Shown here one piece after another: positions 17,121 to 29,862 of a stretch of 64,000 nt of DNA. The position numbers and the translations under genes were made by a program. Origin of the DNA: Chloroflexota bacterium. Its GTDB lineage: Bacteria > Chloroflexota > Limnocylindria > Limnocylindrales > CSP1-4. The DNA is taken from assembly GCA_045804645.1 (NCBI GenBank), contig JBJMMR010000073.1:1146-65145 (forward strand), read 5' to 3'. The notes beneath the pieces were generated by a model, which was not told the origin of the DNA, searched no databases, and saw nothing but the letters and a program-made list of their open reading frames with translations. Position 1 is the first letter of the stretch. Every line of letters begins with the position of its first letter.

Positions 17121-17353
17121 CTCAGCGGGACCTCGTCTGTGTGGTTGTTGCCGGATCGGTCCGGTCGGTGACGGGAGGCATCGTCTGCTGGCGCACCCCC
17201 GCGCAGCGCCCGGCAAGCGACGCCGAAACGGACGGACGCTCGGCCCCCCACAGAGCCGCCCCGCGACGACCCGGTCCTCGGCCGGATGACGTAGGCGCCA
17301 TCGCCGAACGGCGATGCTCGCCGTTCGAAACCCGGGCGTATCCTCAACCCCCG

Positions 17354-20300
17354 ATGACCACGACCCGATCCCGTCGCTCGCGCACGCCCCCGTCCACCGA
17401 CTCGTCCGACCTGTCGGTCGAGTCCGCCACGTCCGATCGGAGCACGTCCGCACCGAACTCGTCCGCAACGTCCGGATCGACGACGCGTGCCGCTCGCGCG
17501 GCCAAGACGTCGGGCGACGGTGGGCGCAAGCGCCCCGCCAGCCGGAAGAAGGACCCCGACGGCGGCGACGGCGCGCTCCACGCCCTGCTGACGGCCGCCG
17601 TCGAAGAGACCGCGCGCCTCCTCCACGCCGACGGCGCGATGGTCTACCTGATGGATCCTGCCTCGGGGAACCTCCGCTTCGCGCACGACGCCGGCATCAA
17701 GCGTGCGCGCACACGCGAGTGGATCCGCGGGCTTGAGCTTGCGCCGGGCGTCGGCATGTTCGGGCTCGCTGTCGCGAAACGAACGACGGTCATCACGTCG
17801 GACTACGTGAACGACGCACAGTTCCGTCATTCCCGCGGCGCCGATCGTGTGGTCGACGACCTCGGCATCACCTCCATGGTCGTCTCGCCACTTCTCGCCG
17901 GGGACGAGGTATTCGGGGGTCTCGGCGCCTTCTCCAGGCACAAGGACGCCTTCGATCCCGCGCAGATCGCACTCGTGCGCGCGCTCGCCGAACACGCCGC
18001 CAGTGCCATGGCCAATGCCCGCCTGATCGAGGAGCTCGATCGTTCCCGGCAGGCGCTCGACCGGTCCCGGAGCGATCTCGCCCGCCGTGCCGACGCCGAG
18101 CAGGCGCTCCGCGAGATCGCCGCCCGGATCACCGCCCTACGCGATCCCGGGGAGATCCTCCAAGAAGTGGTCGAGCTCGCGAGTCGACTCGTCGGCGGGG
18201 AGGGCGCGATCCTCGACCTGCTCGACCCCGACTCGGGAAACCTGCGCTGGGCGTACGACGATGGGCTCGGCCGGCGGTTCACCGACGAAGAACGGGCGAT
18301 GCTCTGGATCTCGGTGGGGGAGGGCGCGACCGGCGTCGCCGTCGCCGAGGACCGCGCGGTCGTGGCCGGGGACGATCTCGCCTCGCTGTTCCCGCCGGGA
18401 CCGGAGAACACCAGCTTCTACGAGCGCACCGGCTTCCGCTCGATGATCGCTGCGCCGATCACGGGCGAACGTGGACCGCTTGGCGTCATCGAGGTCTATT
18501 CGGTCCGTCCGGATTCGTTCAGCGATGACGACGTCGCGCTGATCCGTGCGCTTGCAAGCCAGGCGGCCATCGCCATCACGAACGCGCGACTGATCACCGA
18601 GCTTGCCGAGTCGCGCGAGGCCCTCGAGCGCACCGCCGAGGCCGAACGGACGCTGCGCGAGATCGCTGCGTCGGTCAACGCGTTGCGCGACCAGGACGAG
18701 CTCCTCCAGGCGATCGTCGATGCGGCGACGCGGCTGCTTCGGTCGACCGGCGCGATGATCGACCTGTTCGATCCCGGCGATGTCTCGTTCGGCGGGTACC
18801 GTCACACGGATACCCGGCTCGCGTATGACGCCGCATTCCTGGAGGAGGTCGACGTCGAGCCGGACGCCGGCGTCTCCGGCCTGACGCTCAGGACCGGCAA
18901 GGTCGAGTGGAGCGGTGACTACATGAACGACGCGCGCTTCCGGCACACGCCGGAGCGCGACCGGTTCGTCACCGAGACCGGTATCCGCTCGGTCATCTCG
19001 GCGCCCCTCCTGCGCCGGGGCGAGGTCATCGGCTCCGTGACCGTCTACGCCGATCGTCAGGACGCGTACGACGAGCAGGACGCCGCCGTGCTCGCGGGCC
19101 TCGCCGACCAGGCCGCCGTCGCGATCGCGAACGTCAGTCTCATCCGCGAGCTCGAAGCGTCGCGCGAAGAGACGTCCCGGCGAGCCGACGCGGAGCGGAC
19201 CCTGCGCGAGATCGCCGTCCGTGTCTCATCGATCCTCGACCCCACCGAGGTCCTGGACCGCATCGTCGTCGAGGCGGCCCGGCTCCTCGGGTCGGACGGT
19301 TCACGCATCGACCTCTGGGACGACGAGACCGAGTCCCTTCTGTGGGCGTACTCGGCGGGCGACGCGATGCGCGACGTGCCCGACTGGGGGCGGACCGGCG
19401 GCATCAAGCCGGGCCACGCCGTGGCCGGTCTGGCGTTCCTTGACCAGCGCGCGTACATGACGGCCGATTACCTCGCCGACTCGCGATTCGTGACGACACC
19501 TGGCATCAAGCGCTTCATCACAGCAGCCGGGATCCGGGCTGTCATCGCGGTGCCGCTGACCGGCGAGGACAAGCGGCCGCTGGGCGTCCTGTCGGTCGTG
19601 TCGCGCCAACCCGGGGCGTACACCGAGAGCGACGTCGAGACGCTCTCGGCCCTCGCCACCCATGCCTCGATCGCCATCGTCAATGCGAACCTGATGGAGG
19701 CGCTCGCTCGATCCCAGGCGGACGTCGAGCGGCGTGCCGACGCAGAACGGACGCTGCGCGAGATCGCGGCACGGGTCACGGCGCTGCACGAGCCGGAGGA
19801 GGTCCTCCAAGCGATCATCGACGAGGCGCGGCGGCTCCTGCGCGCGGACGGCGCGGTGATCGACCAGTACGACGACGATCGGGACACGCTCGTCTGGGCA
19901 TATGACGCTGGACTGCCGACCGCACAGCGCGAAGCGCTCAAGCTCAATAGCCTCCGCGTGGGCCAAGGCGTCGCCGGCAAGGCCGTCGCCGAGGGGCGGG
20001 TCATCCACGTCGAGGACTACCGGACGGCCGACTTCGAACACGACGTCCTGACGGATTCGCTTGCCGAGCTCGCGAACGTGCGCGGCCTCGTCGCGGCACC
20101 GATCATCGGCGAGGCCGGCCCGCTCGGCGCCATCGAGGTGATGAGCCACGAGCCGAACGCCTTCGATGACATCGATATCGCCGTGCTCGGCGGTCTCGCC
20201 GAACAAGCCGCGATCGCGATCACGAATGCACGCCTGATCGACGAGCTCGAGCGATCGAAACGCGCGCTCGCCCGCCGCGCGGAGACCGAGCGGTCGCTCC

Positions 20301-23020
20301 GTGACATCACGGCGCGCATCGCCGCGCTCACCGATCGGGACGAGTTGTTCGAGCGGGTCGTCGAGGAAGCCCGGCGGTTGCTCGACACCGACGGTGCGCA
20401 CCTCACGCGCATGGCGCCGGACGGCGGCTACCTGATCCCGGTCGTGGTCGCGGGCGGTGCCGACGAGGCGACGCGGACGTGGCTGATGGGGATGCGCTTT
20501 CCGCTGGGCGGCGGCATCAACGGTCTCGCCGCCGAGCTCGGCGTGCCGGTCTGGACGTCCGACTACATGTCGGACGAGCGGATCCCGCACGAGTCCGACG
20601 ACGATGCGGCGGCGAGTCGGATGCAGCTCGTCGGCATGGCCGCGGCGCCACTGCGCGCTCCGGGCGGCGAGGTGATCGGGACGCTCGCGGTCTCGACGTC
20701 AGCACCCCGCACCTTCGCTGCCGCCGATCTCGACCTCCTCCAGGGCCTCGCCGACCAGGCCGCCATCGCGCTGACGAACTCGAACCTGATCGCCCGCGTC
20801 ACCCGTGAGGAGGCCCGCTTCCGCGGTCTCGTCCAGACCACGCCGGATGTGATCTGGCGCGCGGACGCGGACGGCATCTTCACGTTCATGGCCGACGCCG
20901 CCGAAGCACTATTCGGCTGGCCGATCGACCAGATCGTGGGGCAGCACTTCGCCTTCCTCACCCACCCCGATTCCATGCCGCTCGCGCGGGAGCGCTACGG
21001 GGCCGTCGGCCGCGATCCGGACCTGATCGACCGGGTGCCGCTCACGCTGGTCCGCCGCGACGGGACGTCCTTCGCCGCCGAGGTGACGACGGCGGGAGTC
21101 TTCGAAGATGGTGTGTGGGTCGGCGCGCAGGGCACCGTCCGGGACGTCTCCGAGCGGGCACGTCTCGAGCGTGAGCTCCGCGAATCGGAGGAGCGCTATC
21201 GCTTCCTCGTCCAGAACGCGCCGGACGTGATCTGGTCGATCGACGGCGAGGCGCGCCTGACGTTCCTGTCCGATGCGATCGAGCGCCTGACCGGGATCCG
21301 CCCAGACGAGCTGCTCGGACGTCACTTCGGCGCACTCGTCCACGAGACGTCGCGCGACGTGGCCGAAAGCGACTGGACCGGGCAGATGGAGCAGGGCTCG
21401 CAGGAGGTGCGCGGCCGGCTGAACCTGCGCCACCGTGACGGAAGCCCCGTGGCCGCCGAATTCATCGCGATCGCCACGCTCGACGAGAACGGCAAGTTTG
21501 CCGGCGCGAACGGATCCGTGCGCGACATGCGCGACCGCGATCGCCTCGAGCGCGACCTACGGGCGTCCGAGGATCGGTACCGGACGCTGGCATCATCGTC
21601 GCCGGACATGGTCTTCGCCACCGATGCCGAAGGCCGGTACACCTTCCTCTCGGACCGGGCGAAGACGATGCTCGGCTGGGATCTCGAGGCGAGCCTCGGC
21701 CGACCGTTCTTCGACAAGGTCGCACCGGGCTGGGAAGGTGCCGCCGCGGCGAGCTACCAGGCCGTGCTCGATGACCCCGCGACCGTCCATTCGGTCCGCA
21801 TCGACTTCCTCGACGGGGATGGGACGCCGCGTCCGCTCGAGATCAACGTGCTCGCGAAGGTCGAGGACGGGGTCCTCGTCGGGATCAACGGCGTCGCCCG
21901 TGACATCTCTGAGCGCCTGCGGCTGGAACGCGAGCTGAGCCAGTCCGAGGAGCGGTTCCGGTTCCTCGTGCAGAAATCGCCCGACATCGTCTTCTCGACG
22001 GATGCCGAGGGCCGGTTCACCTTCCTCTCCGAGGCGATCGAGCGCGTGACCGGTTACCGCGCGGACGATGTGCTCGGACAACATTTCTCGGTGCTGGTCG
22101 ACCAGTCGAGCGGCCCGATCGCAGGCGATCGGTGGGCCGAGCTCGTCGCCGACCCGAGCCGTGAGCAGCAAGCGGCCCTCGTCCTCGTCGGGCCCGACGA
22201 CCGCCGTGTACCGGTCGACGTCCGTGCGATCGGCATCGTCGACCACGAGGGGAACTTCGCCGGGATCCAGGGCGCGACCCGCGACGTGAGCGACCAGGTG
22301 CGGCTCGAGAACGAGCTCCGGCGTCATGCCGGTGAGCTCGCCGCTGGCGAGGAGCGGGCACACCTGGCGCGTGAGCTCCACGACTCGGTCACCCAGGCCC
22401 TGTTCTCGATGACGCTCGTCTCGCGCTCGGTCGAGATGTTGCTCGAGAAGGATCCGGCTGCCGCGCGCGATCAGCTGGCCCAGCTGCGCGATCTCCAGCG
22501 CGAGGCCCTGGCGGAGATGCGCGCGCTGATCTTCGAGCTGCGGCCCGGCAACCTCGAGCAGGACGGACTCGTCCGCGCCCTGAAGACGCACGCCAGCGCG
22601 CTCCAGGGCCGGCTCGGGCTGCCGATCCTGGTCGAGACCGACCTCGCTGACCGGCTCCCGCTCCCGGCCGAGGAGGTCCTGTATCGGATCGCGCAGGAGG
22701 CGCTCCACAACGTCGTGAAGCACGCAGCGGCGCATCGGGTGAGGGTCGACGTCCGGCGCGATGGCTCCGTCGTGAAGCTGCGCGTCGAGGATGACGGCAA
22801 GGGGTTCGACCCGGAGCGGGTGCCGGACGGCCACCTCGGTCTTGCCGGGATGCGCGCCCGCGCCGAGCGCATCGGAGCGGAGTTCTCCTGTACGAGCGCC
22901 GAGGGTCAGGGGACCACGGTCGAAGTCCAGATGGGGTCGGACGCCCTCGCGGCGCTCGAGACGGCTCCCGGGATCCGAACCGGAGCGGCTCCGGAGGTCG
23001 CGTCGATCCGCGACGGATGA
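17354..23020 (+). CDS. Soluble multi-sensor histidine kinase: 6x GAF, 4x PAS, HisKA_3, HATPase_c (NarL-partner type)
   Basis: ATG at 17354 in tracked ORF 17141..23020 gives 1888 aa. Ser/Thr/Arg-rich N-terminus, no TM segment. Six GAF-like modules are each followed by a linker LIxELxxSR..RRADAERTLREIA. Four PAS modules start E(E/D)R(F/Y)R.LV...PD. H-box ARELHDSVTQALFSM. ATPase motifs EALHNVVKHA, VEDDGKGF, GHLGLAGMRARAE. Confidence 0.85.
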   Translation: MTTTRSRRSRTPPSTDSSDLSVESATSDRSTSAPNSSATSGSTTRAARAAKTSGDGGRKRPASRKKDPDGGDGALHALLTAAVEETARLLHADGAMVYLMDPASGNLRFAHDAGIKRARTREWIRGLELAPGVGMFGLAVAKRTTVITSDYVNDAQFRHSRGADRVVDDLGITSMVVSPLLAGDEVFGGLGAFSRHKDAFDPAQIALVRALAEHAASAMANARLIEELDRSRQALDRSRSDLARRADAEQALREIAARITALRDPGEILQEVVELASRLVGGEGAILDLLDPDSGNLRWAYDDGLGRRFTDEERAMLWISVGEGATGVAVAEDRAVVAGDDLASLFPPGPENTSFYERTGFRSMIAAPITGERGPLGVIEVYSVRPDSFSDDDVALIRALASQAAIAITNARLITELAESREALERTAEAERTLREIAASVNALRDQDELLQAIVDAATRLLRSTGAMIDLFDPGDVSFGGYRHTDTRLAYDAAFLEEVDVEPDAGVSGLTLRTGKVEWSGDYMNDARFRHTPERDRFVTETGIRSVISAPLLRRGEVIGSVTVYADRQDAYDEQDAAVLAGLADQAAVAIANVSLIRELEASREETSRRADAERTLREIAVRVSSILDPTEVLDRIVVEAARLLGSDGSRIDLWDDETESLLWAYSAGDAMRDVPDWGRTGGIKPGHAVAGLAFLDQRAYMTADYLADSRFVTTPGIKRFITAAGIRAVIAVPLTGEDKRPLGVLSVVSRQPGAYTESDVETLSALATHASIAIVNANLMEALARSQADVERRADAERTLREIAARVTALHEPEEVLQAIIDEARRLLRADGAVIDQYDDDRDTLVWAYDAGLPTAQREALKLNSLRVGQGVAGKAVAEGRVIHVEDYRTADFEHDVLTDSLAELANVRGLVAAPIIGEAGPLGAIEVMSHEPNAFDDIDIAVLGGLAEQAAIAITNARLIDELERSKRALARRAETERSLRDITARIAALTDRDELFERVVEEARRLLDTDGAHLTRMAPDGGYLIPVVVAGGADEATRTWLMGMRFPLGGGINGLAAELGVPVWTSDYMSDERIPHESDDDAAASRMQLVGMAAAPLRAPGGEVIGTLAVSTSAPRTFAAADLDLLQGLADQAAIALTNSNLIARVTREEARFRGLVQTTPDVIWRADADGIFTFMADAAEALFGWPIDQIVGQHFAFLTHPDSMPLARERYGAVGRDPDLIDRVPLTLVRRDGTSFAAEVTTAGVFEDGVWVGAQGTVRDVSERARLERELRESEERYRFLVQNAPDVIWSIDGEARLTFLSDAIERLTGIRPDELLGRHFGALVHETSRDVAESDWTGQMEQGSQEVRGRLNLRHRDGSPVAAEFIAIATLDENGKFAGANGSVRDMRDRDRLERDLRASEDRYRTLASSSPDMVFATDAEGRYTFLSDRAKTMLGWDLEASLGRPFFDKVAPGWEGAAAASYQAVLDDPATVHSVRIDFLDGDGTPRPLEINVLAKVEDGVLVGINGVARDISERLRLERELSQSEERFRFLVQKSPDIVFSTDAEGRFTFLSEAIERVTGYRADDVLGQHFSVLVDQSSGPIAGDRWAELVADPSREQQAALVLVGPDDRRVPVDVRAIGIVDHEGNFAGIQGATRDVSDQVRLENELRRHAGELAAGEERAHLARELHDSVTQALFSMTLVSRSVEMLLEKDPAAARDQLAQLRDLQREALAEMRALIFELRPGNLEQDGLVRALKTHASALQGRLGLPILVETDLADRLPLPAEEVLYRIAQEALHNVVKHAAAHRVRVDVRRDGSVVKLRVEDDGKGFDPERVPDGHLGLAGMRARAERIGAEFSCTSAEGQGTTVEVQMGSDALAALETAPGIRTGAAPEVASIRDG
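17537..20806 (+). repeat. Intragenic tandem array of six GAF+linker modules (period 543-552 nt)
   Basis: The linker-encoding motif (RRADAE...LREIA) starts at 18083, 18629, 19178, 19730 and 20273. Confidence 0.8.
20807..22327 (+). repeat. Intragenic tandem array of four PAS modules (period 378-381 nt)
   Basis: E-E/D-R-F/Y-R module starts at 20807, 21188, 21569 and 21947. Each module ends with V/ARD(V/I/M)S/RER..LE.EL. Confidence 0.8.
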
Positions 23021-23105
23021 CGTAGACGGCGACAGTCATCCAGCCGAGTCGTGTTCCCGGCGAGCGTCCCTGTTCGGCGGCAAGCCTTCGCCCCACCATG
23101 GTGAC

Positions 23106-23513
23106 ATGTCTCAGTCCGGCCCCCGCGTTGATGGCCCGCTCCGAGTCCTGGTCGTCGATGCGGATGATCGGGTCCGGGAAAGCCTCACCGGTCTCCTCTC
23201 GATCAGCGGCCAATGCATGGTCGTCGCGAGCGCCGGTCAGGTCGGTGAGGCCCTCGATCTGGCGCTGGACCATCGCCCCGATGTCGTCGTCGTGGATCCG
23301 CGGCTGCCCGAGGTCGATGGGGGGATCGCCTTGATCACGCGTCTGCGTGCCCAGCTCCCGGGCGTCCGGATCCTGGCCATGAGCTGGTCCGATTCGCTCG
23401 AGTCCGCAGCGCTCGCAAGTGGCGCCGACGGCTTCGTCCGCAAGACCTTCCGACCGACCGAGCTGACCGCGGCGATCGTCGCGGCGGGACGAGGCGTGAA
23501 GCCCGCCGCCTAG
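23106..23513 (+). CDS. Stand-alone receiver-domain response regulator (CheY-like)
   Basis: 135 aa from the ATG in tracked ORF 22791..23513. LRVLVVDADD, VVVVDPRLPEVDG (phospho-acceptor Asp region), FVRK. No output domain. Confidence 0.75.
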   Translation: MSQSGPRVDGPLRVLVVDADDRVRESLTGLLSISGQCMVVASAGQVGEALDLALDHRPDVVVVDPRLPEVDGGIALITRLRAQLPGVRILAMSWSDSLESAALASGADGFVRKTFRPTELTAAIVAAGRGVKPAA

Positions 23514-23612
23514 ACGCAGCGCAGACGCCGTCCTTTGTTAGACTCGACCTCGCTCGCCGCTCGTCTCGCGACCCGAGCCCCCGCCGACGCCGTCACCGCG
23601 CCAGGAGCCAAC

Positions 23613-24278
23613 GTGTCCGATCCCGAGCCCATCCGCGTCCTCATCGTGGACGACCACTCGGTCGTACGCATGGGGCTCAAGATGTTCTTCGACCACCAGC
23701 CCGACATCGAGGTCGTTGGCGAGGCCGCCGACGGTTCCGAGGGTGTGGCCATGGCGCGCCGTCTTGAGCCCGACGTCGTGCTGATGGACCTGCTGATGCC
23801 GAATATGGATGGGGTGACCGCCATCGGTCGCATCAAGGCTGAGCGCCCCGAGACCGAGATCGTGACGATGACCTCGTTCATCGAAGAGGAGAAGGTCACA
23901 TCGGCGCTCGAGGCAGGTGCCTCGGGGTATGTGCTCAAGGACGCGGAAGCCGAAGAGGTCGCCGCCGCTGTTCGCTCGGCGTACGCGGGCGAGGTGCATC
24001 TCGACCCCGCCGTCGCGCGGCTGCTCGCACAGCGGATGCGCGCCAAGAAGTCGCCCGACGAGGAGCTCGCCGAGCCCCTGACGGACCGAGAGAAGGACGT
24101 GCTGCGTCTGCTCGGGCAGGGGATGAGCAACAAGGAGATCGGGGCCGAGCTGTTCATCACCGAACGGACGGCTCGGACGTACGTGTCGAACATCCTGGGC
24201 AAGCTCGGACTGGCGTCTCGGACCCAGGCCGCGCTCTACGCGGTCGAGCACAAGCTGGTCGACGGCCCCAAGGGGTAG
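23613..24278 (+). CDS. NarL/FixJ-family response regulator (REC + LuxR HTH)
   Basis: GTG at 23613 preceded by AGGAG (23603-23607) inside tracked ORF 23535..24278. IRVLIVDDHSVVR, VVLMDLLMPNMDG, LTDREKDVLRLLGQGMSNKEIGAELFITERTARTYVSNILGKLG. Confidence 0.9.
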   Translation: MSDPEPIRVLIVDDHSVVRMGLKMFFDHQPDIEVVGEAADGSEGVAMARRLEPDVVLMDLLMPNMDGVTAIGRIKAERPETEIVTMTSFIEEEKVTSALEAGASGYVLKDAEAEEVAAAVRSAYAGEVHLDPAVARLLAQRMRAKKSPDEELAEPLTDREKDVLRLLGQGMSNKEIGAELFITERTARTYVSNILGKLGLASRTQAALYAVEHKLVDGPKG

Positions 24279-24402
24279 CTCGCAGGCGGCGGTTCGCCGC
24301 GACGGCGCCGCCCCAAGGGGTACCTCGCAGGCGGCGGTTCGCCGCGACGGCGCGGGCCCAAGGGGTAGCTCGCAGGCGGCGGTTCGCCGAGCCGGCGCGG
24401 CC
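24268..24402. repeat. 3 x 45-bp tandem repeat starting inside the last 11 nt of the response-regulator gene
   Basis: Units start at 24268, 24313 and 24358 (CCAAGGGGTA(G/C)CTCGCAGGCGGCGGTTCGCCG...). Each unit has a GCGGCG-GTT-CGCCGC mini-hairpin. Unit 1 carries the TAG stop, and unit 2 has TAC at the same place. Confidence 0.85.
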
Positions 24403-24414
24403 CCCGAGCGCCGC

Positions 24415-24507
24415 CGGGCCCCGTGCGCCGCGCCTGCCGGGCCCCGTGCGCCGCGCCTGCCGGGCCCGGAGCGCCGCCCCTGCCCAGGCCGCGCCTGCCA
24501 GGCCCGC
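24415..24507. repeat. 23-bp tandem repeat (CGGGCCCCGTGCGCCGCGCCTGC), 2 exact-like units then degenerate units
   Basis: Unit starts at 24415, 24438 and 24461. Tracked GTG codons at 24423 and 24446 are exactly 23 nt apart. Confidence 0.75.
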
Positions 24508-24666: not shown

Positions 24667-24789
24667 CCCTTGGCTCGCGCCGGCGGCCATCGACGACGGA
24701 GCCCGCGGGCGCCCATCGCCCATCGCGGGCGCGCCTGCGCCCCTCGCCGCCCGGCTCCGCCGCCCGGCTCCGCCGCCCCGCCGCGCCCG

Positions 24790-26022
24790 TTACTCGACCT
24801 TGACCACCCGGTACGTCGCCCGCCCTCGTGGCGTCTCCACCGCGACCTCGTCCCCGGCGCGCGCGCCGACCAACGCCTGACCGACGGGTGACACGATCGA
24901 CAACCGTCCGGCGGCGGGCTTCGCCTCAGCCGATCCCACGAGCATGTAGACCGACTCGAACCCGTCGACCTCCACGGTCAGGGTCGAGCCGATGTTCGCG
25001 CCCTCACCAGCCGCGGGCGCCTCGGTGATCACCGCGCTCCGGAGTCGCGCTTCGAGCGCCTGGATCCGTCCCTCGAGGAACGACTGCTCCTCGCGCGCCG
25101 CGTGGTACTCGGCGTTCTCCTTGAGGTCGCCATGCTCCTTGGCGGTGCGTATCCGGGCGACCACCTCGGGCCGCTTGACCTCGGTCAACTCGCGGAGCTC
25201 GGCCCGCATCCGCTCCGCGCCCTCGGCGGTCAACGTGACCGACGCAGCCGCTGCCGCTCGCGATGTCATCGGCCGTGGCCGCGGTGCTGGGGCGGGCTGG
25301 GCGCGCACCCGCTTCGGCGGCGGTTCACCCCTGGCCCCTTCCGCGTCGCCATCGGGCACGACGACGACATGCGTCGGGGGAGCGGCGACCTTCTCCTCCG
25401 CCAGCAGCGATCCGGCGATGCCTGTCGCCTTTCGCTCGCCGGTCGGCCGGCGCAGGTTCGCCCAGGGCAGCACGACCGCCGTGTCCGGGAGCGCCGCCAG
25501 CTCCGATGCGGGCACCGCCGCGTCGAACGCCGTCAGCAGCGCATCCTCGTACTCCTCGACCGCGTCGGTCGCTGCCCACCAAACGCGCATGGATGTCCGC
25601 GGGTCGAGCGTCGCGAGCCAGTGGCCGCCAGCGTGCGGCCGTCGATCGCCGAGCGGTGTGCGCTGCATGGCGGCGACCCGCCCGCTGATCGAGGTTGACG
25701 ATGCGCCGACATATAGGACGGTCTGAGACGGCAGCCAGAACGCGCCGAGCCTGGTCGCGAGCGCCTTCGACGTCGGTCGCTCGCCATCGACGGTCAAGGA
25801 CGGCACTCGCTCGATCCATTTGCCGAGCCGCGTCAGCTCGACGGGCGCGCGCGCCGCCGGAGCCGTCGATTCGATGAGGAACACGCCGCCGCCCCGCGCC
25901 GGGACCGGTCGGCCCGGCCAGCCCCAGACAGCCGGACCGTCGGCGAGCAGCCCGACCTCGCGCAGCAACTCGGCGGCATTCACGACGTGGACCGCCACGA
26001 TCGGCGAGGGCGGAACGAGCAT
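24790..26022 (-). CDS. greA: GreA-type transcript cleavage factor fused to a ~250-aa N-terminal extension with a GIY-YIG-like motif set
   Basis: One uninterrupted frame (tracked 24790..26127). The C-terminal 159 aa (24790..25269) form a complete GreA (LTAEGAERMRAEL..., KEHGDLKENAEYHAAREEQSFLEGRI, SIVSPVGQALVGARAGDEV). The N-terminal part has GAFWLPSQTVLYVGASSTSISGRV...H...EEYEDALL. Start assigned to ATG 26022, but 26127 is possible. Confidence 0.6.
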   Translation of the reverse strand: MLVPPSPIVAVHVVNAAELLREVGLLADGPAVWGWPGRPVPARGGGVFLIESTAPAARAPVELTRLGKWIERVPSLTVDGERPTSKALATRLGAFWLPSQTVLYVGASSTSISGRVAAMQRTPLGDRRPHAGGHWLATLDPRTSMRVWWAATDAVEEYEDALLTAFDAAVPASELAALPDTAVVLPWANLRRPTGERKATGIAGSLLAEEKVAAPPTHVVVVPDGDAEGARGEPPPKRVRAQPAPAPRPRPMTSRAAAAASVTLTAEGAERMRAELRELTEVKRPEVVARIRTAKEHGDLKENAEYHAAREEQSFLEGRIQALEARLRSAVITEAPAAGEGANIGSTLTVEVDGFESVYMLVGSAEAKPAAGRLSIVSPVGQALVGARAGDEVAVETPRGRATYRVVKVE

Positions 26023-26108: not shown

Positions 26109-27494
26109 ATGGCCGCACCCAGGCCACGCCGGGCCGCGGTCTGGCGAGGCTTTCTGATCGTCCCGATCGCGCTGCTCATAACGGTCGTATCGGTCGGATT
26201 CCAGGCGACGGCCGCCGCGACGCCGACCCCCGGGGTCGCCCCGACCCCGACTGCCACGCCGAGCGAGCCTGCCGGTGTCGACCCACTCCCGTCTGTCGCA
26301 CCGACCCCCGACGCGAGCCCGACACCGACTCTCGCACCCGGCCCCGGGCCGCAAGCCGGCGAGCCGCCGGTGGTCCGGCCCCCGGTCTCGATCACGCGGC
26401 CACGCCTCGCGCCACAGACGCGACTCGCTCTCCAGGCTCGGCTCGATCGACTGCGCCAGCGGTACGGCATCCCGGGCATCTCCGTCGCGATCGTCCTGCC
26501 CGACGGCGCGGTGTGGTCGGGCGTGAGCGGGATGGCCGACATCCACACCAAGGCACCCGTCAGACGTGAGACATCGTTCGCCATCGCAAGCGTCAGCAAG
26601 ACGTTCACCGCGGCGCTGATCCTCGCGCTCGCCGAGGACGGCATCGTCGACCTCGACGCGCCCGTCCGGCAGTACCTCCCGACCGTGAAGAAGATCTCGG
26701 TCAAGGTGAAGGTCCGCCAGTTGCTCGACCATACGAGCGGGCTTCGCGACTTCTTCTTCCACCCCTCGATCGACCACCAACTGCTGTCGCGTCCCGACCG
26801 TCGCTGGGACGGCACGCTCTCGCTCAAGTACCTCGGCAAGCCGTACTCGGCGCCAGGCAAGAGCTGGCACTACTCGAATACGAACTACCTCCTGCTCGGC
26901 ATGATCGCGGAGGCCGCCGCGAAGAGGCCGCTGGCCGACCAGGTCCGCGACCGCTTCCTCGAACCACTCGGGCTCGACGACACGTGGTACCAGCCCGAGG
27001 ACCCCGCGCCGACCGACGTCGCGCACGGTTACCGATTCACCTCGACCTCGACGGCCGCGCCGGCGATCGACCTGACCGACGGCACGCCACTCGTCCCGTT
27101 CACCTCGGTCGTCACGGCCGCCGGTGGCGCCGGCGGGTTCGCCTCGACCGCGCGAGATCTGGCGCATTGGGCACAGGCCCTGTACAGCGGCCACGTCCTT
27201 CGACCTGAATATCTCGCCGCGATGGTCGATCCGAGCACGACGGCGGCGCTGAAGTCATCGATCCCGTACGGCTACGGCACGCAGGTGGTCGAGATCGACG
27301 GCCGCCGGACGCTCGGCCACTCTGGTCGCCTTCTCGGCTTCCGGTCGGCCATACGGTATCTCCCGGACCAGGGCGTCTCCATCGCCATCGTGACGAACCA
27401 GAGCCGAACCGATCCCGGCCCGATCCTCCGGTCGCTGCTGCGCCTCGCGCTGACGCCCGTCGACCGAACGTGCGTCTGCCGAGTCCGTCGCTGA
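26109..27494 (+). CDS. Serine hydrolase, beta-lactamase class C / DD-peptidase family, N-terminal TM anchor and Pro/Thr-rich linker
   Basis: ATG at 26109 in tracked ORF 26049..27494. S-x-x-K motif IASVSKTF, YSNTNY (Y-x-N), HSG near the C-terminus. Confidence 0.8.
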   Translation: MAAPRPRRAAVWRGFLIVPIALLITVVSVGFQATAAATPTPGVAPTPTATPSEPAGVDPLPSVAPTPDASPTPTLAPGPGPQAGEPPVVRPPVSITRPRLAPQTRLALQARLDRLRQRYGIPGISVAIVLPDGAVWSGVSGMADIHTKAPVRRETSFAIASVSKTFTAALILALAEDGIVDLDAPVRQYLPTVKKISVKVKVRQLLDHTSGLRDFFFHPSIDHQLLSRPDRRWDGTLSLKYLGKPYSAPGKSWHYSNTNYLLLGMIAEAAAKRPLADQVRDRFLEPLGLDDTWYQPEDPAPTDVAHGYRFTSTSTAAPAIDLTDGTPLVPFTSVVTAAGGAGGFASTARDLAHWAQALYSGHVLRPEYLAAMVDPSTTAALKSSIPYGYGTQVVEIDGRRTLGHSGRLLGFRSAIRYLPDQGVSIAIVTNQSRTDPGPILRSLLRLALTPVDRTCVCRVRR

Positions 27495-28174: not shown

Positions 28175-29482
28175 TTAGCGCCCTGGTCGGCGGCCGCGTC
28201 CACCGGATCGACCGGGGCCACCACCGGAGCCCACCCCGGCTCCCGAACGTGAGCGAACCGGCTTCCGCCGCGCGTGGTGCTCGCGGGTCACGTGCGCGTG
28301 CCCGTTGCGCATCCCCACCGGACGCGGCTCGACCGAGCGGTCGGGGACGAACCCCTCCTCGACGGTCCACGGGATCGCCTGCTTCAGCATCCGCTGGACG
28401 CCGCGCAACAGGTCGACCTCGTCGATACACACGAGGCTGATCGCCTCGCCGGTCGCCCCGGCTCGGCCGGTCCGCCCGATCCGGTGGATGTAGTCCTGCG
28501 GGTTCCACGGCAGCTCGAAGTTGACGACGACCGGCAGGTCCTCGATATCGAGGCCGCGCGCCGCGACGTCGGTCGCGACGAGGACTCGGATCTCACCGGT
28601 CTTGAACCCCTCGAGCGCCCGCGTCCGCTCTGGCTGCGACCGGTCGCTGTGGATGGCGACCGCATCGAGGCCCTCGCGGTCGAGCCGCGACGCGAGGCGC
28701 GAGGCCGCCAGTTTGGTGCGCGTGAAGACGAGGACCTGGCGCAGGTCGTCGGCGCGGATCAGGTGAGCCAGCAGCTCCTCCTTGCGATCGCGGTCGACGG
28801 GATAGACGAGCTGGTTGACCGCCTCGGCGGCGGTGTTCCGGGGCGCTACCTCGACGGTCGCCGGATCGCGCAGGATCGTGCCGGAGAGGCGCCGGATGTC
28901 GTCGGAGAACGTCGCCGAGAACATCAGGTTCTGACGGCGCTTCGGGAGCAGGTCGATGATCCTCTGGATATCGGGCAGGAAGCCCATGTCGAGCATCCGA
29001 TCCGCCTCATCGAGGACGAGCACCTCGACCTGCCCGAGGTTCGCCACGCGCTGACCGACGAGGTCGAGGAGGCGACCCGGTGTCGCGGTCAGGATCTCGA
29101 CGCCGGCGCGGAGTGCCTTGATCTGCGGCTCCATCGGCACGCCGCCGTACACGACGGCCGAGCGAAGCGGCACCGTGCGCCCATAGGTCTGCACGCTCGC
29201 GTCGACCTGCATGGCGAGCTCCCGGGTCGGAACGAGGATCAGCGCGCGGACGGGGTGGCGGGCCGGCGAGAACGAGTCGTTCGCGAGCGCGCGCAGCCGG
29301 TCGAGGATGGGCAGGGTAAAGGCCGCGGTCTTGCCGGTGCCCGTCTGGGCGGCGGCGAGGACGTCGCGGCCCTCGAGCACGAACGGGATGGCGGCTGCCT
29401 GGACGGGTGTCGGCTCGGTGTAGCCCTCGTCGGCAACGGTCTGCAGCAGATCGGCCGTCAGGCCGAGCGATTCGAAGGTCAA
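28175..29482 (-). CDS. DEAD-box ATP-dependent RNA helicase (RhlE-like) with Arg/Gly-rich C-terminal tail
   Basis: TTG start at 29482, 6 nt after AGGAG, in-frame in tracked ORF 28175..29839. Q-motif TPVQ, AQTGTGKT, VLDEADRM (DEAD), SAT, HRIGRTGRAG. Tail SGAGVGSGGGPGRSGGRGRRPGR. Confidence 0.9.
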   Translation of the reverse strand: MTFESLGLTADLLQTVADEGYTEPTPVQAAAIPFVLEGRDVLAAAQTGTGKTAAFTLPILDRLRALANDSFSPARHPVRALILVPTRELAMQVDASVQTYGRTVPLRSAVVYGGVPMEPQIKALRAGVEILTATPGRLLDLVGQRVANLGQVEVLVLDEADRMLDMGFLPDIQRIIDLLPKRRQNLMFSATFSDDIRRLSGTILRDPATVEVAPRNTAAEAVNQLVYPVDRDRKEELLAHLIRADDLRQVLVFTRTKLAASRLASRLDREGLDAVAIHSDRSQPERTRALEGFKTGEIRVLVATDVAARGLDIEDLPVVVNFELPWNPQDYIHRIGRTGRAGATGEAISLVCIDEVDLLRGVQRMLKQAIPWTVEEGFVPDRSVEPRPVGMRNGHAHVTREHHARRKPVRSRSGAGVGSGGGPGRSGGRGRRPGR

Positions 29483-29862
29483 GAGTTGCTCCTGGGATGC
29501 GATCCTTGCCGTCGGCTGGCGGGATCCGCGGGAGCGCGACGGCGGCGCCGGTCGCACGACATCGATCGCTGCGGCGAGGCGGCCTGCGCGAGCATAGCCG
29601 AAAACGGCCCTTGCCCTCGGCCTCGCGGGAAGCCACCAGCGCCAGCGGCGCGGCCGACATGGTGCACGGTGGCACCGAAAACATCCCACGACGCGCCCTG
29701 TGACGGGTCGGATGGGACTTCTGGCTAGAGACGGCCCCCACGATGGGTGCGATACTTCGACCGCGGACCCACCCCACGGAGTCCCGATAGACAGGCCCAA
29801 CAGAAGACTCGCCGCCCCCACGGCAGGACTTCCTGTCATCCCGTCGAGTCCGTACTCGACAC

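Follow-up and report, generated by a model that had tools for sequence, protein, structure and literature searches.

Why should a bacterial transcript-cleavage factor carry a large folded domain in front of its canonical sequence, and what could such a domain do? This question is raised by a gene found in a stretch of 64,000 nucleotides from a Chloroflexota genome (contig JBJMMR010000073.1, assembly GCA_045804645.1; the whole stretch analysed, hereafter the window). Within a single open reading frame (ORF) of 410 amino acids (aa), the gene encodes an N-terminal domain (N-domain) of about 200 aa, followed by a disordered linker and a complete GreA. As judged from profile comparisons, the N-domain is related to the GIY-YIG domain of UvrC-type proteins. 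The fused form has, by its alignment, lost both putative water-activating tyrosines and mostly keeps the phosphate- and metal-holding residues. The explanation cautiously favoured here is that a domesticated pseudo-nuclease would keep a working GreA module tethered to nucleic acid close to the RNA polymerase. The principal parts of the gene are as follows.

24790..26022, minus strand: whole fusion gene as recorded (410 aa plus stop; ORF analysis)
25405..25983, minus strand: N-domain of divergent GIY-YIG type, residues ~14-206 (AlphaFold2, HHalign)
25318..25356, minus strand: motif P-D-G-D-A-E-G-A-R-G-E-P-P, residues 223-235, in the disordered region (alignment)
25237..25317, minus strand: variable basic Pro/Ala-rich linker, predicted local distance difference test score (pLDDT) <50 (alignment, AlphaFold2)
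25027..25236, minus strand: GreA N-terminal coiled coil (PF03449; Pfam), with tip residues Asp299 and Glu302
24793..24996, minus strand: GreA C-terminal globular domain (PF01272; Pfam, NCBIfam, Foldseek)

The fusion gene and its GreA module

The stop codon of the fusion gene occupies positions 24792-24790, and translation from the ATG at 26022 gives the 410-aa form, which is entry P0002 of the protein collection and whose residue numbering is followed throughout. Upstream, the frame is open from a GTG at 26127 (445 aa), and an alternative GTG at 25983 lies at the position matching the M/V-NAAELL start of relatives. The original prediction, made from the sequence alone, held that one stop-free frame encodes a complete GreA after a non-GreA N-terminal region. 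Pfam, NCBIfam and ORF analysis all bear this out, and the sequence strings that it quoted were all found in the translation.

The two GreA Pfam domains lie on residues 263-410. The N-terminal model (PF03449, GreA_GreB_N) scores 95.3 bits against a gathering score of 24.5 and covers profile positions 2-71 of 71, and the C-terminal model (PF01272, GreA_GreB) scores 68 bits against 26.9. Two full-length GreA models of NCBIfam are also passed (TIGR01462 with 151.6 against a cut-off of 139, NF001263 with 148.6 against 145), the remaining GreA equivalogs scoring under their cut-offs. Foldseek searches with the full-length model returned solely GreA structures, with template modelling (TM) scores of 0.83-0.87. 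At the tip of the coiled coil (GDLKENAEY), Asp299 (25128-25126) and Glu302 (25119-25117) are invariant in the alignment with 39 relatives; we take them to correspond to D41 and E44, the two acidic tip residues of Escherichia coli GreA. Because these residues are invariant and the scores exceed curated cut-offs, the C-terminal 150 residues are predicted to form a complete transcript-cleavage factor, probably active in the secondary channel of RNA polymerase. The C-terminal domain of Gre factors docks at the rim of this channel, and the N-terminus of their coiled coil is solvent-exposed at its entrance, so that an N-terminal tether would be sterically compatible and could reach nearby DNA.

Canonical GreA, represented by the E. 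coli protein (PDB 1GRJ; TIGR01462), matches the C-terminal 150 residues of the fusion over its full length, with 40% identity, a Foldseek TM of 0.87 and both acidic tip residues in common. Relative to it, the fusion has about 260 extra N-terminal residues, comprising the folded domain and the tether. The earlier statement that canonical GreA has no extra domain needs completing, as two NCBIfam entries, NF004969 ('transcript cleavage factor/unknown domain fusion protein', 718 positions) and NF011309 (906 positions), model Gre factors in which a C-terminal GreA module likewise follows a large N-terminal region. These proteins, presumably from Chlamydiae and Spirochaetes, are much larger than the fusion, which matches solely their GreA parts (568-703 and 752-901, respectively), the N-terminal regions being unrelated. 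What is new is the conserved accessory domain on a Gre factor, N-terminally extended Gre factors as such being already known. The searchable literature holds no paper that pairs GreA with GIY-YIG as full words, or Limnocylindria with GreA, and the sole paper containing both 'Gre factor' and 'GIY-YIG' deals with an unrelated subject.

How widely the architecture occurs, a point left by the original prediction, was assessed by searching with the N-terminal region. A total of 1,554 proteins were recovered at E<=1e-3, nearly all of 390-440 aa and with both GreA Pfam domains, and the fusion architecture is common to more than 1,500 proteins in the databases. The few named matches, annotated just as 'transcription elongation factor GreA', belong to 'Candidatus Limnocylindrales' or to Chloroflexota metagenome-assembled genomes (MAGs). 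Each of the 44 other genomes sampled from the source family has the N-domain; beyond this family, it turned up in a single genome of another family, and not in any of about 105 further genomes of the class. Dozens of N-terminal residues are invariant among 39 close homologues, and such strong conservation, extending to 814 cluster representatives, argues that the region is no chance open frame. The same unbroken architecture recurs in more than 130 diverse sequences of independent assemblies, and the fusion ORF is not an assembly artefact. Gene order is also kept across genera, with a divergent serine hydrolase gene (beta-lactamase family) on one side and a convergent LuxR-type response regulator gene on the other; between the hydrolase and this two-component regulator, the fusion gene is monocistronic. 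In a FastTree phylogeny of 210 N-domains every fusion falls in one clade, together with 33 non-fusion tips that are mostly truncated ORFs. The best explanation is vertical inheritance of the fusion gene within one family of Limnocylindria-type Chloroflexota.

The fusion is, by sequence comparison, a faster-evolving accessory GreA paralogue that usually occurs beside a normal greA. It is read as accessory because most family genomes also have a canonical greA of 158 aa: in 48 of 61 family genomes there are at least two GreA_N matches, split between a short and a long frame, and in the 11 other family genomes with one match this corresponds to the short canonical gene. That the fusion is in general the sole GreA of its genome was considered and dropped on these grounds. 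Two congeners encode a canonical GreA of ~158 aa (MNNKPTYLSK...), 88% identical between them, whereas the fusions of the same two genomes are 63% identical in the GreA part and 60% in the N part, an approximately threefold faster evolution of the fusion GreA. Fusion and canonical GreA of the congeners are 46-49% identical. Among congeners and neighbouring genera, the adjoining LuxR-type regulator (23535-24278, plus strand) shows 88-98% identity and the fusion, in the same genomes, 52-75%, indicating a much higher rate of evolution for the fusion than for the gene beside it.

A UvrC-type GIY-YIG relationship and the loss of catalytic tyrosines

The AlphaFold2 model of the N-domain, obtained from a 42-sequence alignment, is confident (pLDDT 94.7, predicted TM score 0.87). 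It contains strands at residues 28-33, 46-52, 102-108 and 145-151 and helices at 63-72, 85-93, 112-121, 134-138, 155-169 and 172-177, a secondary-structure order compatible with the GIY-YIG fold. The elements used in comparing the N-domain with GIY-YIG proteins are the following.

25879..25890, minus strand: P-G-V-F, residues 45-48, aligned to UvrC P-G-V-Y (HHalign)
25735..25866, minus strand: family-specific two-helix insertion of ~45 residues (53-96) that parts the GIY strand from the YIG strand (alignment, AlphaFold2)
25666..25713, minus strand: Y104-V-G ... R115 ... M119 (HHalign, residue census; PMC3045582)
25546..25557, minus strand: E156-E-Y-E159, in which Glu159 aligns with the metal-binding Glu of UvrC (greedy HHalign, residue census)
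25456..25458, minus strand: Asn189 in L-P-W/F-A-N-L, candidate equivalent of the GIY-YIG Asn, by an uncertain alignment (conservation)

Profile-profile comparison was carried out with HHalign between a 211-sequence alignment of the N-domain and a 20-sequence alignment of the UvrC GIY-YIG domain from 20 Chloroflexota genomes. The uncut profiles matched with a probability of 92.8% (E 4e-7) over 52 columns comprising the YVG strand, the Arg helix and beta-3. With residues 53-96 removed, the values rose to 95.6-96.3% (E ~2e-9) and PGV[YF] paired with the UvrC PGVY; these highest values follow a post hoc removal of the insertion. Controls gave 3.8-16% for reversed, at most 1.1% for column-shuffled and 0.1% for unrelated alignments. 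A greedy alignment of the uncut profile spans the insertion and places Glu159 opposite the Glu in the 'ALLLE' helix of UvrC, with low column confidence. Small URI-type GIY-YIG proteins matched the N-domain with a probability of 3% only, so that the link appears specific to the UvrC-type profile.

Residues 1-260 gave no above-threshold match in Pfam, NCBIfam, PHROGs, PADLOC or PDB sequences. The weak matches from all libraries point to the GIY-YIG clan, UvrC or 'endonuclease'. The source protein itself has no Pfam match in this part; sub-threshold Pfam matches of its homologues are PF01541, PF20815, PF19239 and PF10544, all of the GIY-YIG clan (best E 0.003), and those in NCBIfam are the uvrC and DEDD-exonuclease (PRK07883) models. 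The sole match of the N-domain when the family profile was searched against PDB sequences with hmmsearch is UvrC (1yd6, E 0.53), and a sub-threshold PHROG match is annotated as 'endonuclease'.

The N-terminal GIY-YIG domain of UvrC/Cho (PF01541; PDB 1YD6) is thus the best profile-profile match, sharing with the N-domain the PGV[YF] element, the YVG...R helix, beta-3 and the Glu helix. Unlike UvrC, the N-domain has a 45-residue beta-hairpin insertion and an extra N-terminal strand and helix, the fusions have lost the GIY Tyr and the Arg+4 Tyr, and the UvrB-binding, Endo-V and HhH regions are absent. The original prediction had seen GIY-YIG-like motifs in this region. The homology and the YVG and Arg elements stand. 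What does not hold is that 'GAF' (93-95) forms the GIY element: its Gly93 varies, no strand is predicted for this segment and HHalign favours PGVF at 45-48, with Gly46 invariant in 211 of 211 sequences. The insertion of about 45 residues and two helices that separates P-G-V-F (45-48) from Y-V-G (104-106) ends in an invariant F-W-L-P.

Structures of Hpy188I with DNA have led to the proposal that the GIY tyrosine acts as general base, with a single metal ion held by Glu, and a Tyr or His at Arg+4 is the proposed proton shuttle of GIY-YIG enzymes; the Arg, the YIG Tyr and the Glu contact the DNA phosphate and the metal (PMC3045582). The equivalent positions (48, 104, 115, 119, 134, 159 and 189) were compared between 135 fusions and 76 non-fusion relatives. 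The signature of the fusions is F-Y-R-[M/L/I/Q]-H-E-N and that of the stand-alone relatives Y-Y-R-Y-[H/W]-E-N. Position 48, that of the GIY tyrosine, is Phe in the source protein and in 124 of the fusions (Tyr in 8), as against Tyr in 55 of the non-fusions. At Arg+4 (position 119) the source protein has Met and nearly all fusions Met, Leu, Ile or Gln, with no Tyr in any of them, as compared with 34 Tyr and 11 Phe among the non-fusions. Tyr at both positions is found in 0/135 fusions. The remaining positions are largely kept by the fusions: Tyr104 of the YIG element (124/135), Gly106 (127/135), Arg115 on the helix after the YIG strand, aligned with the UvrC Arg (133/135), His134 (117/135; 87%), Glu159 (127/135), in a column at least 90% conserved family-wide, and Asn189 (124/135, and 64/76 in non-fusions), located 30 residues past Glu159. 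Several divergent fusions are additionally devoid of Glu159 or Asn189. With both the GIY Tyr and the Arg+4 Tyr/His missing, an active nuclease is not the favoured reading. Between the two congeners, the N part (60%) is about as conserved as the GreA part (63%), suggesting that the N-domain is functional, probably not as a conventional nuclease.

A search of cluster representatives with the N-domain gave 814 matches at E<=1e-3, many of them stand-alone proteins of about 200 aa and some bearing other C-terminal regions. The stand-alone relatives are homologous over the whole N-domain, including the insertion and the LP[FW]ANL tail (37-42% identity, E down to 1e-27), have no GreA part and keep the tyrosines that the fusions have replaced. 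All of them, P0249, P0317, P0357 and P0363 among others, are annotated as 'hypothetical protein' and have no Pfam domain. Their hosts include Bacillota, Phycisphaerae and Deltaproteobacteria MAGs and actinobacterial plasmids. One adjoins HicAB, an HNH protein and a type I restriction-modification system, and another is part of an integrative element together with Prim-Pol, a ParB-methyltransferase and a HARE-HTH protein. In an HK97-type prophage, a 202-aa homologue is placed exactly between terL and the portal gene (L059 6001-6609; L060 1030-1638), an interval that is a classic site of free-standing homing endonucleases. Because stand-alone relatives sit in prophages, defence islands and plasmids, the N-domain of the fusion looks like a domesticated mobile-element nuclease.

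A further homologue was observed in a sister-family genome (L049, G082:C5, 3111-12609). This protein of 324 aa has an intact Y-Y-R-Y signature and a beta-rich C-terminus of about 100 aa with no family assignment; the island around it encodes a helicase C-terminal protein, a NERD-domain protein and a trio of vWA, PP2C-like and Ser-Thr kinase proteins.

Competing explanations for the N-domain

The explanation that we cautiously favour would run as follows. The N-terminal 200 residues would be a GIY-YIG domain domesticated from the stand-alone nuclease family of about 200 aa, which would no longer cut and may serve to bind nucleic acid or to sense structure. A tether of 60-90 residues would link it to the Gre module, which may in this way be held at, or targeted to, DNA near a paused or backtracked polymerase. 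A likeness to Mfd, another RNA-polymerase binder with a module homologous to a nucleotide-excision-repair protein, is conceptual only, as Mfd differs from the fusion in protein, binding site and mechanism. Mfd occurs in the source genome and in 26 of 26 family genomes sampled, which rules out the fusion as an Mfd replacement; the source genome has its own UvrC as well, so that no missing repair factor is being replaced.

Several observations weigh against this explanation. Foldseek searches of the N-domain model against PDB and the viral BFVD gave nothing significant, and no curated Pfam or NCBIfam model reaches threshold on the N-domain. The retained Tyr104, Arg115, Glu159, Asn189 and His134 leave room for residual or altered catalysis. 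The acidic motif conserved in the linker has no explanation under a pseudo-nuclease view, and the clade support for a single origin of the fusions is modest (0.69). DNA or RNA binding by the N-domain, its targeting and any link to repair are what we infer, next to an architecture, conservation, homology and residue losses that were directly observed. Also, no second GreA was found in the source assembly (3.05 Mb, 77 contigs, 87% complete), and in this genome the fusion could be the only Gre factor. The genes that flank the congeners' greA were not found in this assembly either, which fits an assembly gap and proves nothing; the canonical greA of the source genome probably lies in the unassembled part, a gap rather than a loss.

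The alternative that survives best, although we consider it unlikely, is that the N-domain has kept nuclease or nickase activity and is brought by GreA to stalled RNA polymerase, where it would incise damaged template in a transcription-coupled manner or cut R-loop or conflict intermediates, with His134 or another residue as base. Its closest detectable profile is indeed the 3'-incision domain of UvrC; Tyr104, Gly106, Arg115, Glu159 and Asn189 are each kept in over 90% of the fusions and His134 in 87%; and the domain is about as conserved as the GreA part. However, the residues lost are precisely the proposed general base and proton shuttle (PMC3045582), no fusion combines Tyr at 48 and 119 as the stand-alone relatives do, several divergent fusions have dispensed with Glu159 or Asn189 as well, and the presence of Mfd and UvrC in the family leaves no repair gap to fill.

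Somewhat less probable is a role of the N-domain as a protein-protein adaptor, in which a partner, be it RNA polymerase, a repair protein or another, would be contacted through the former active-site cleft or through the conserved PDGDAEGARGEPP motif, altering the place or time of action of the Gre paralogue. The linker is of interest in this respect. Residues ~188-260 are disordered in the full-length model, and within them the P-D-G-D-A-E-G-A-R-G-E-P-P motif is directly followed by a basic K/R patch; the DGDAEGAR core is present in 108 of 133 complete fusions, is not found in stand-alone relatives and occurs once in the source genome, and 22-59 residues separate the motif from the start of GreA in relatives. 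An adaptor would account for the strict conservation of this fusion-specific acidic motif and basic patch in an otherwise disordered linker, as well as for the many surface Trp and Arg that are invariant in a domain whose catalytic residues are gone. Against this, the gene is monocistronic and its neighbourhood suggests no partner, and the Arg, Tyr and Glu that are kept are the DNA-phosphate and metal contacts of GIY-YIG enzymes (PMC3045582).

It appears improbable that the N-domain is no GIY-YIG homologue at all, being instead a new fold fused to GreA whose likeness is limited to a short YVG...R motif. Such a view could draw on the non-significant Foldseek results against PDB and BFVD despite a pLDDT of 94.7, on the failure of every curated model to reach threshold and on the post hoc step behind the top HHalign values. 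The top PDB match in Foldseek, itself non-significant (E 0.39, probability 0.23, TM 0.26), is the GIY-YIG restriction endonuclease R.Eco29kI (PDB 3MX4), which has a GIY-YIG core and extra N-terminal elements, as has the N-domain. Yet HHalign reaches 92.8% over 52 columns even with uncut profiles, while no control exceeds 16%, greedy alignment pairs PGVF with PGVY and Glu159 with the catalytic Glu of UvrC, the weak matches of four independent libraries point to one superfamily, and stand-alone relatives have the full Y-Y-R-Y-E-N signature in homing-endonuclease-like positions.

An artefact of assembly or annotation as the source of the single frame, or a separate 159-aa GreA made from the in-frame ATG at 25269, at the start of the GreA part, can hardly be entertained, given the unbroken architecture in over 130 diverse sequences of independent assemblies, the lack of conservation of the internal Met (T, V, A or a gap in relatives), the canonical greA that most relatives have elsewhere and the absence upstream of this ATG of a GGAGG-like Shine-Dalgarno sequence, as the original prediction had noted, or of any promoter-like site, a promoter and terminator scan of the region having returned no sites.

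Genomic surroundings and significance of the fusion

In the intergenic region that separates the LuxR-type regulator gene (ending at 24278) from the 3' end of the fusion gene, GC-rich tandem arrays occupy positions 24263-24504, including one with a 45-bp unit (24263-24404, 3.2 copies, 91% matches) and one with a 23-bp unit (24408-24484, 3.4 copies); shorter repeats of 13-21 bp occur at 24704-24789. No terminator-like site was detected in this intergenic region 3' of the fusion gene. Further along the window, a very large sensor histidine kinase (17141-23020, plus strand; 1,959-aa frame) combines six GAF, at least four PAS and HisKA_3/HATPase_c domains; two response regulators come after it (22791-23513 and 23535-24278), the second with a LuxR/GerE helix-turn-helix. 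Upstream on the strand of the fusion gene lies a DEAD-box helicase gene (28175-29839, minus strand); two plus-strand genes intervene, and the helicase and the fusion gene have therefore no operon link.

Gre factors are usually seen as minimal two-domain proteins that contact the secondary channel only. In the present case, an entire bacterial family maintains a second Gre factor with a domain of 200 residues apparently recruited from mobile-element nucleases, which the databases label plainly as 'GreA'. The analysis also defines a widespread, uncharacterised GIY-YIG family of stand-alone 200-aa proteins that no curated model covers. A rather speculative extension is that the fusion couples the rescue of backtracked polymerase to the recognition, or residual nicking, of abnormal DNA; if true, this would constitute an Mfd-independent link between transcription and DNA surveillance, acting via the secondary channel with a domesticated GIY-YIG domain of homing-endonuclease type as its recognition module. 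With its catalytic tyrosines stripped and constraint retained, the N-domain would represent a clear case of nuclease domestication on the transcription machinery, and the family may offer a natural system in which to learn how added modules retarget secondary-channel factors and whether the sensing of DNA structure is coupled to backtrack rescue.

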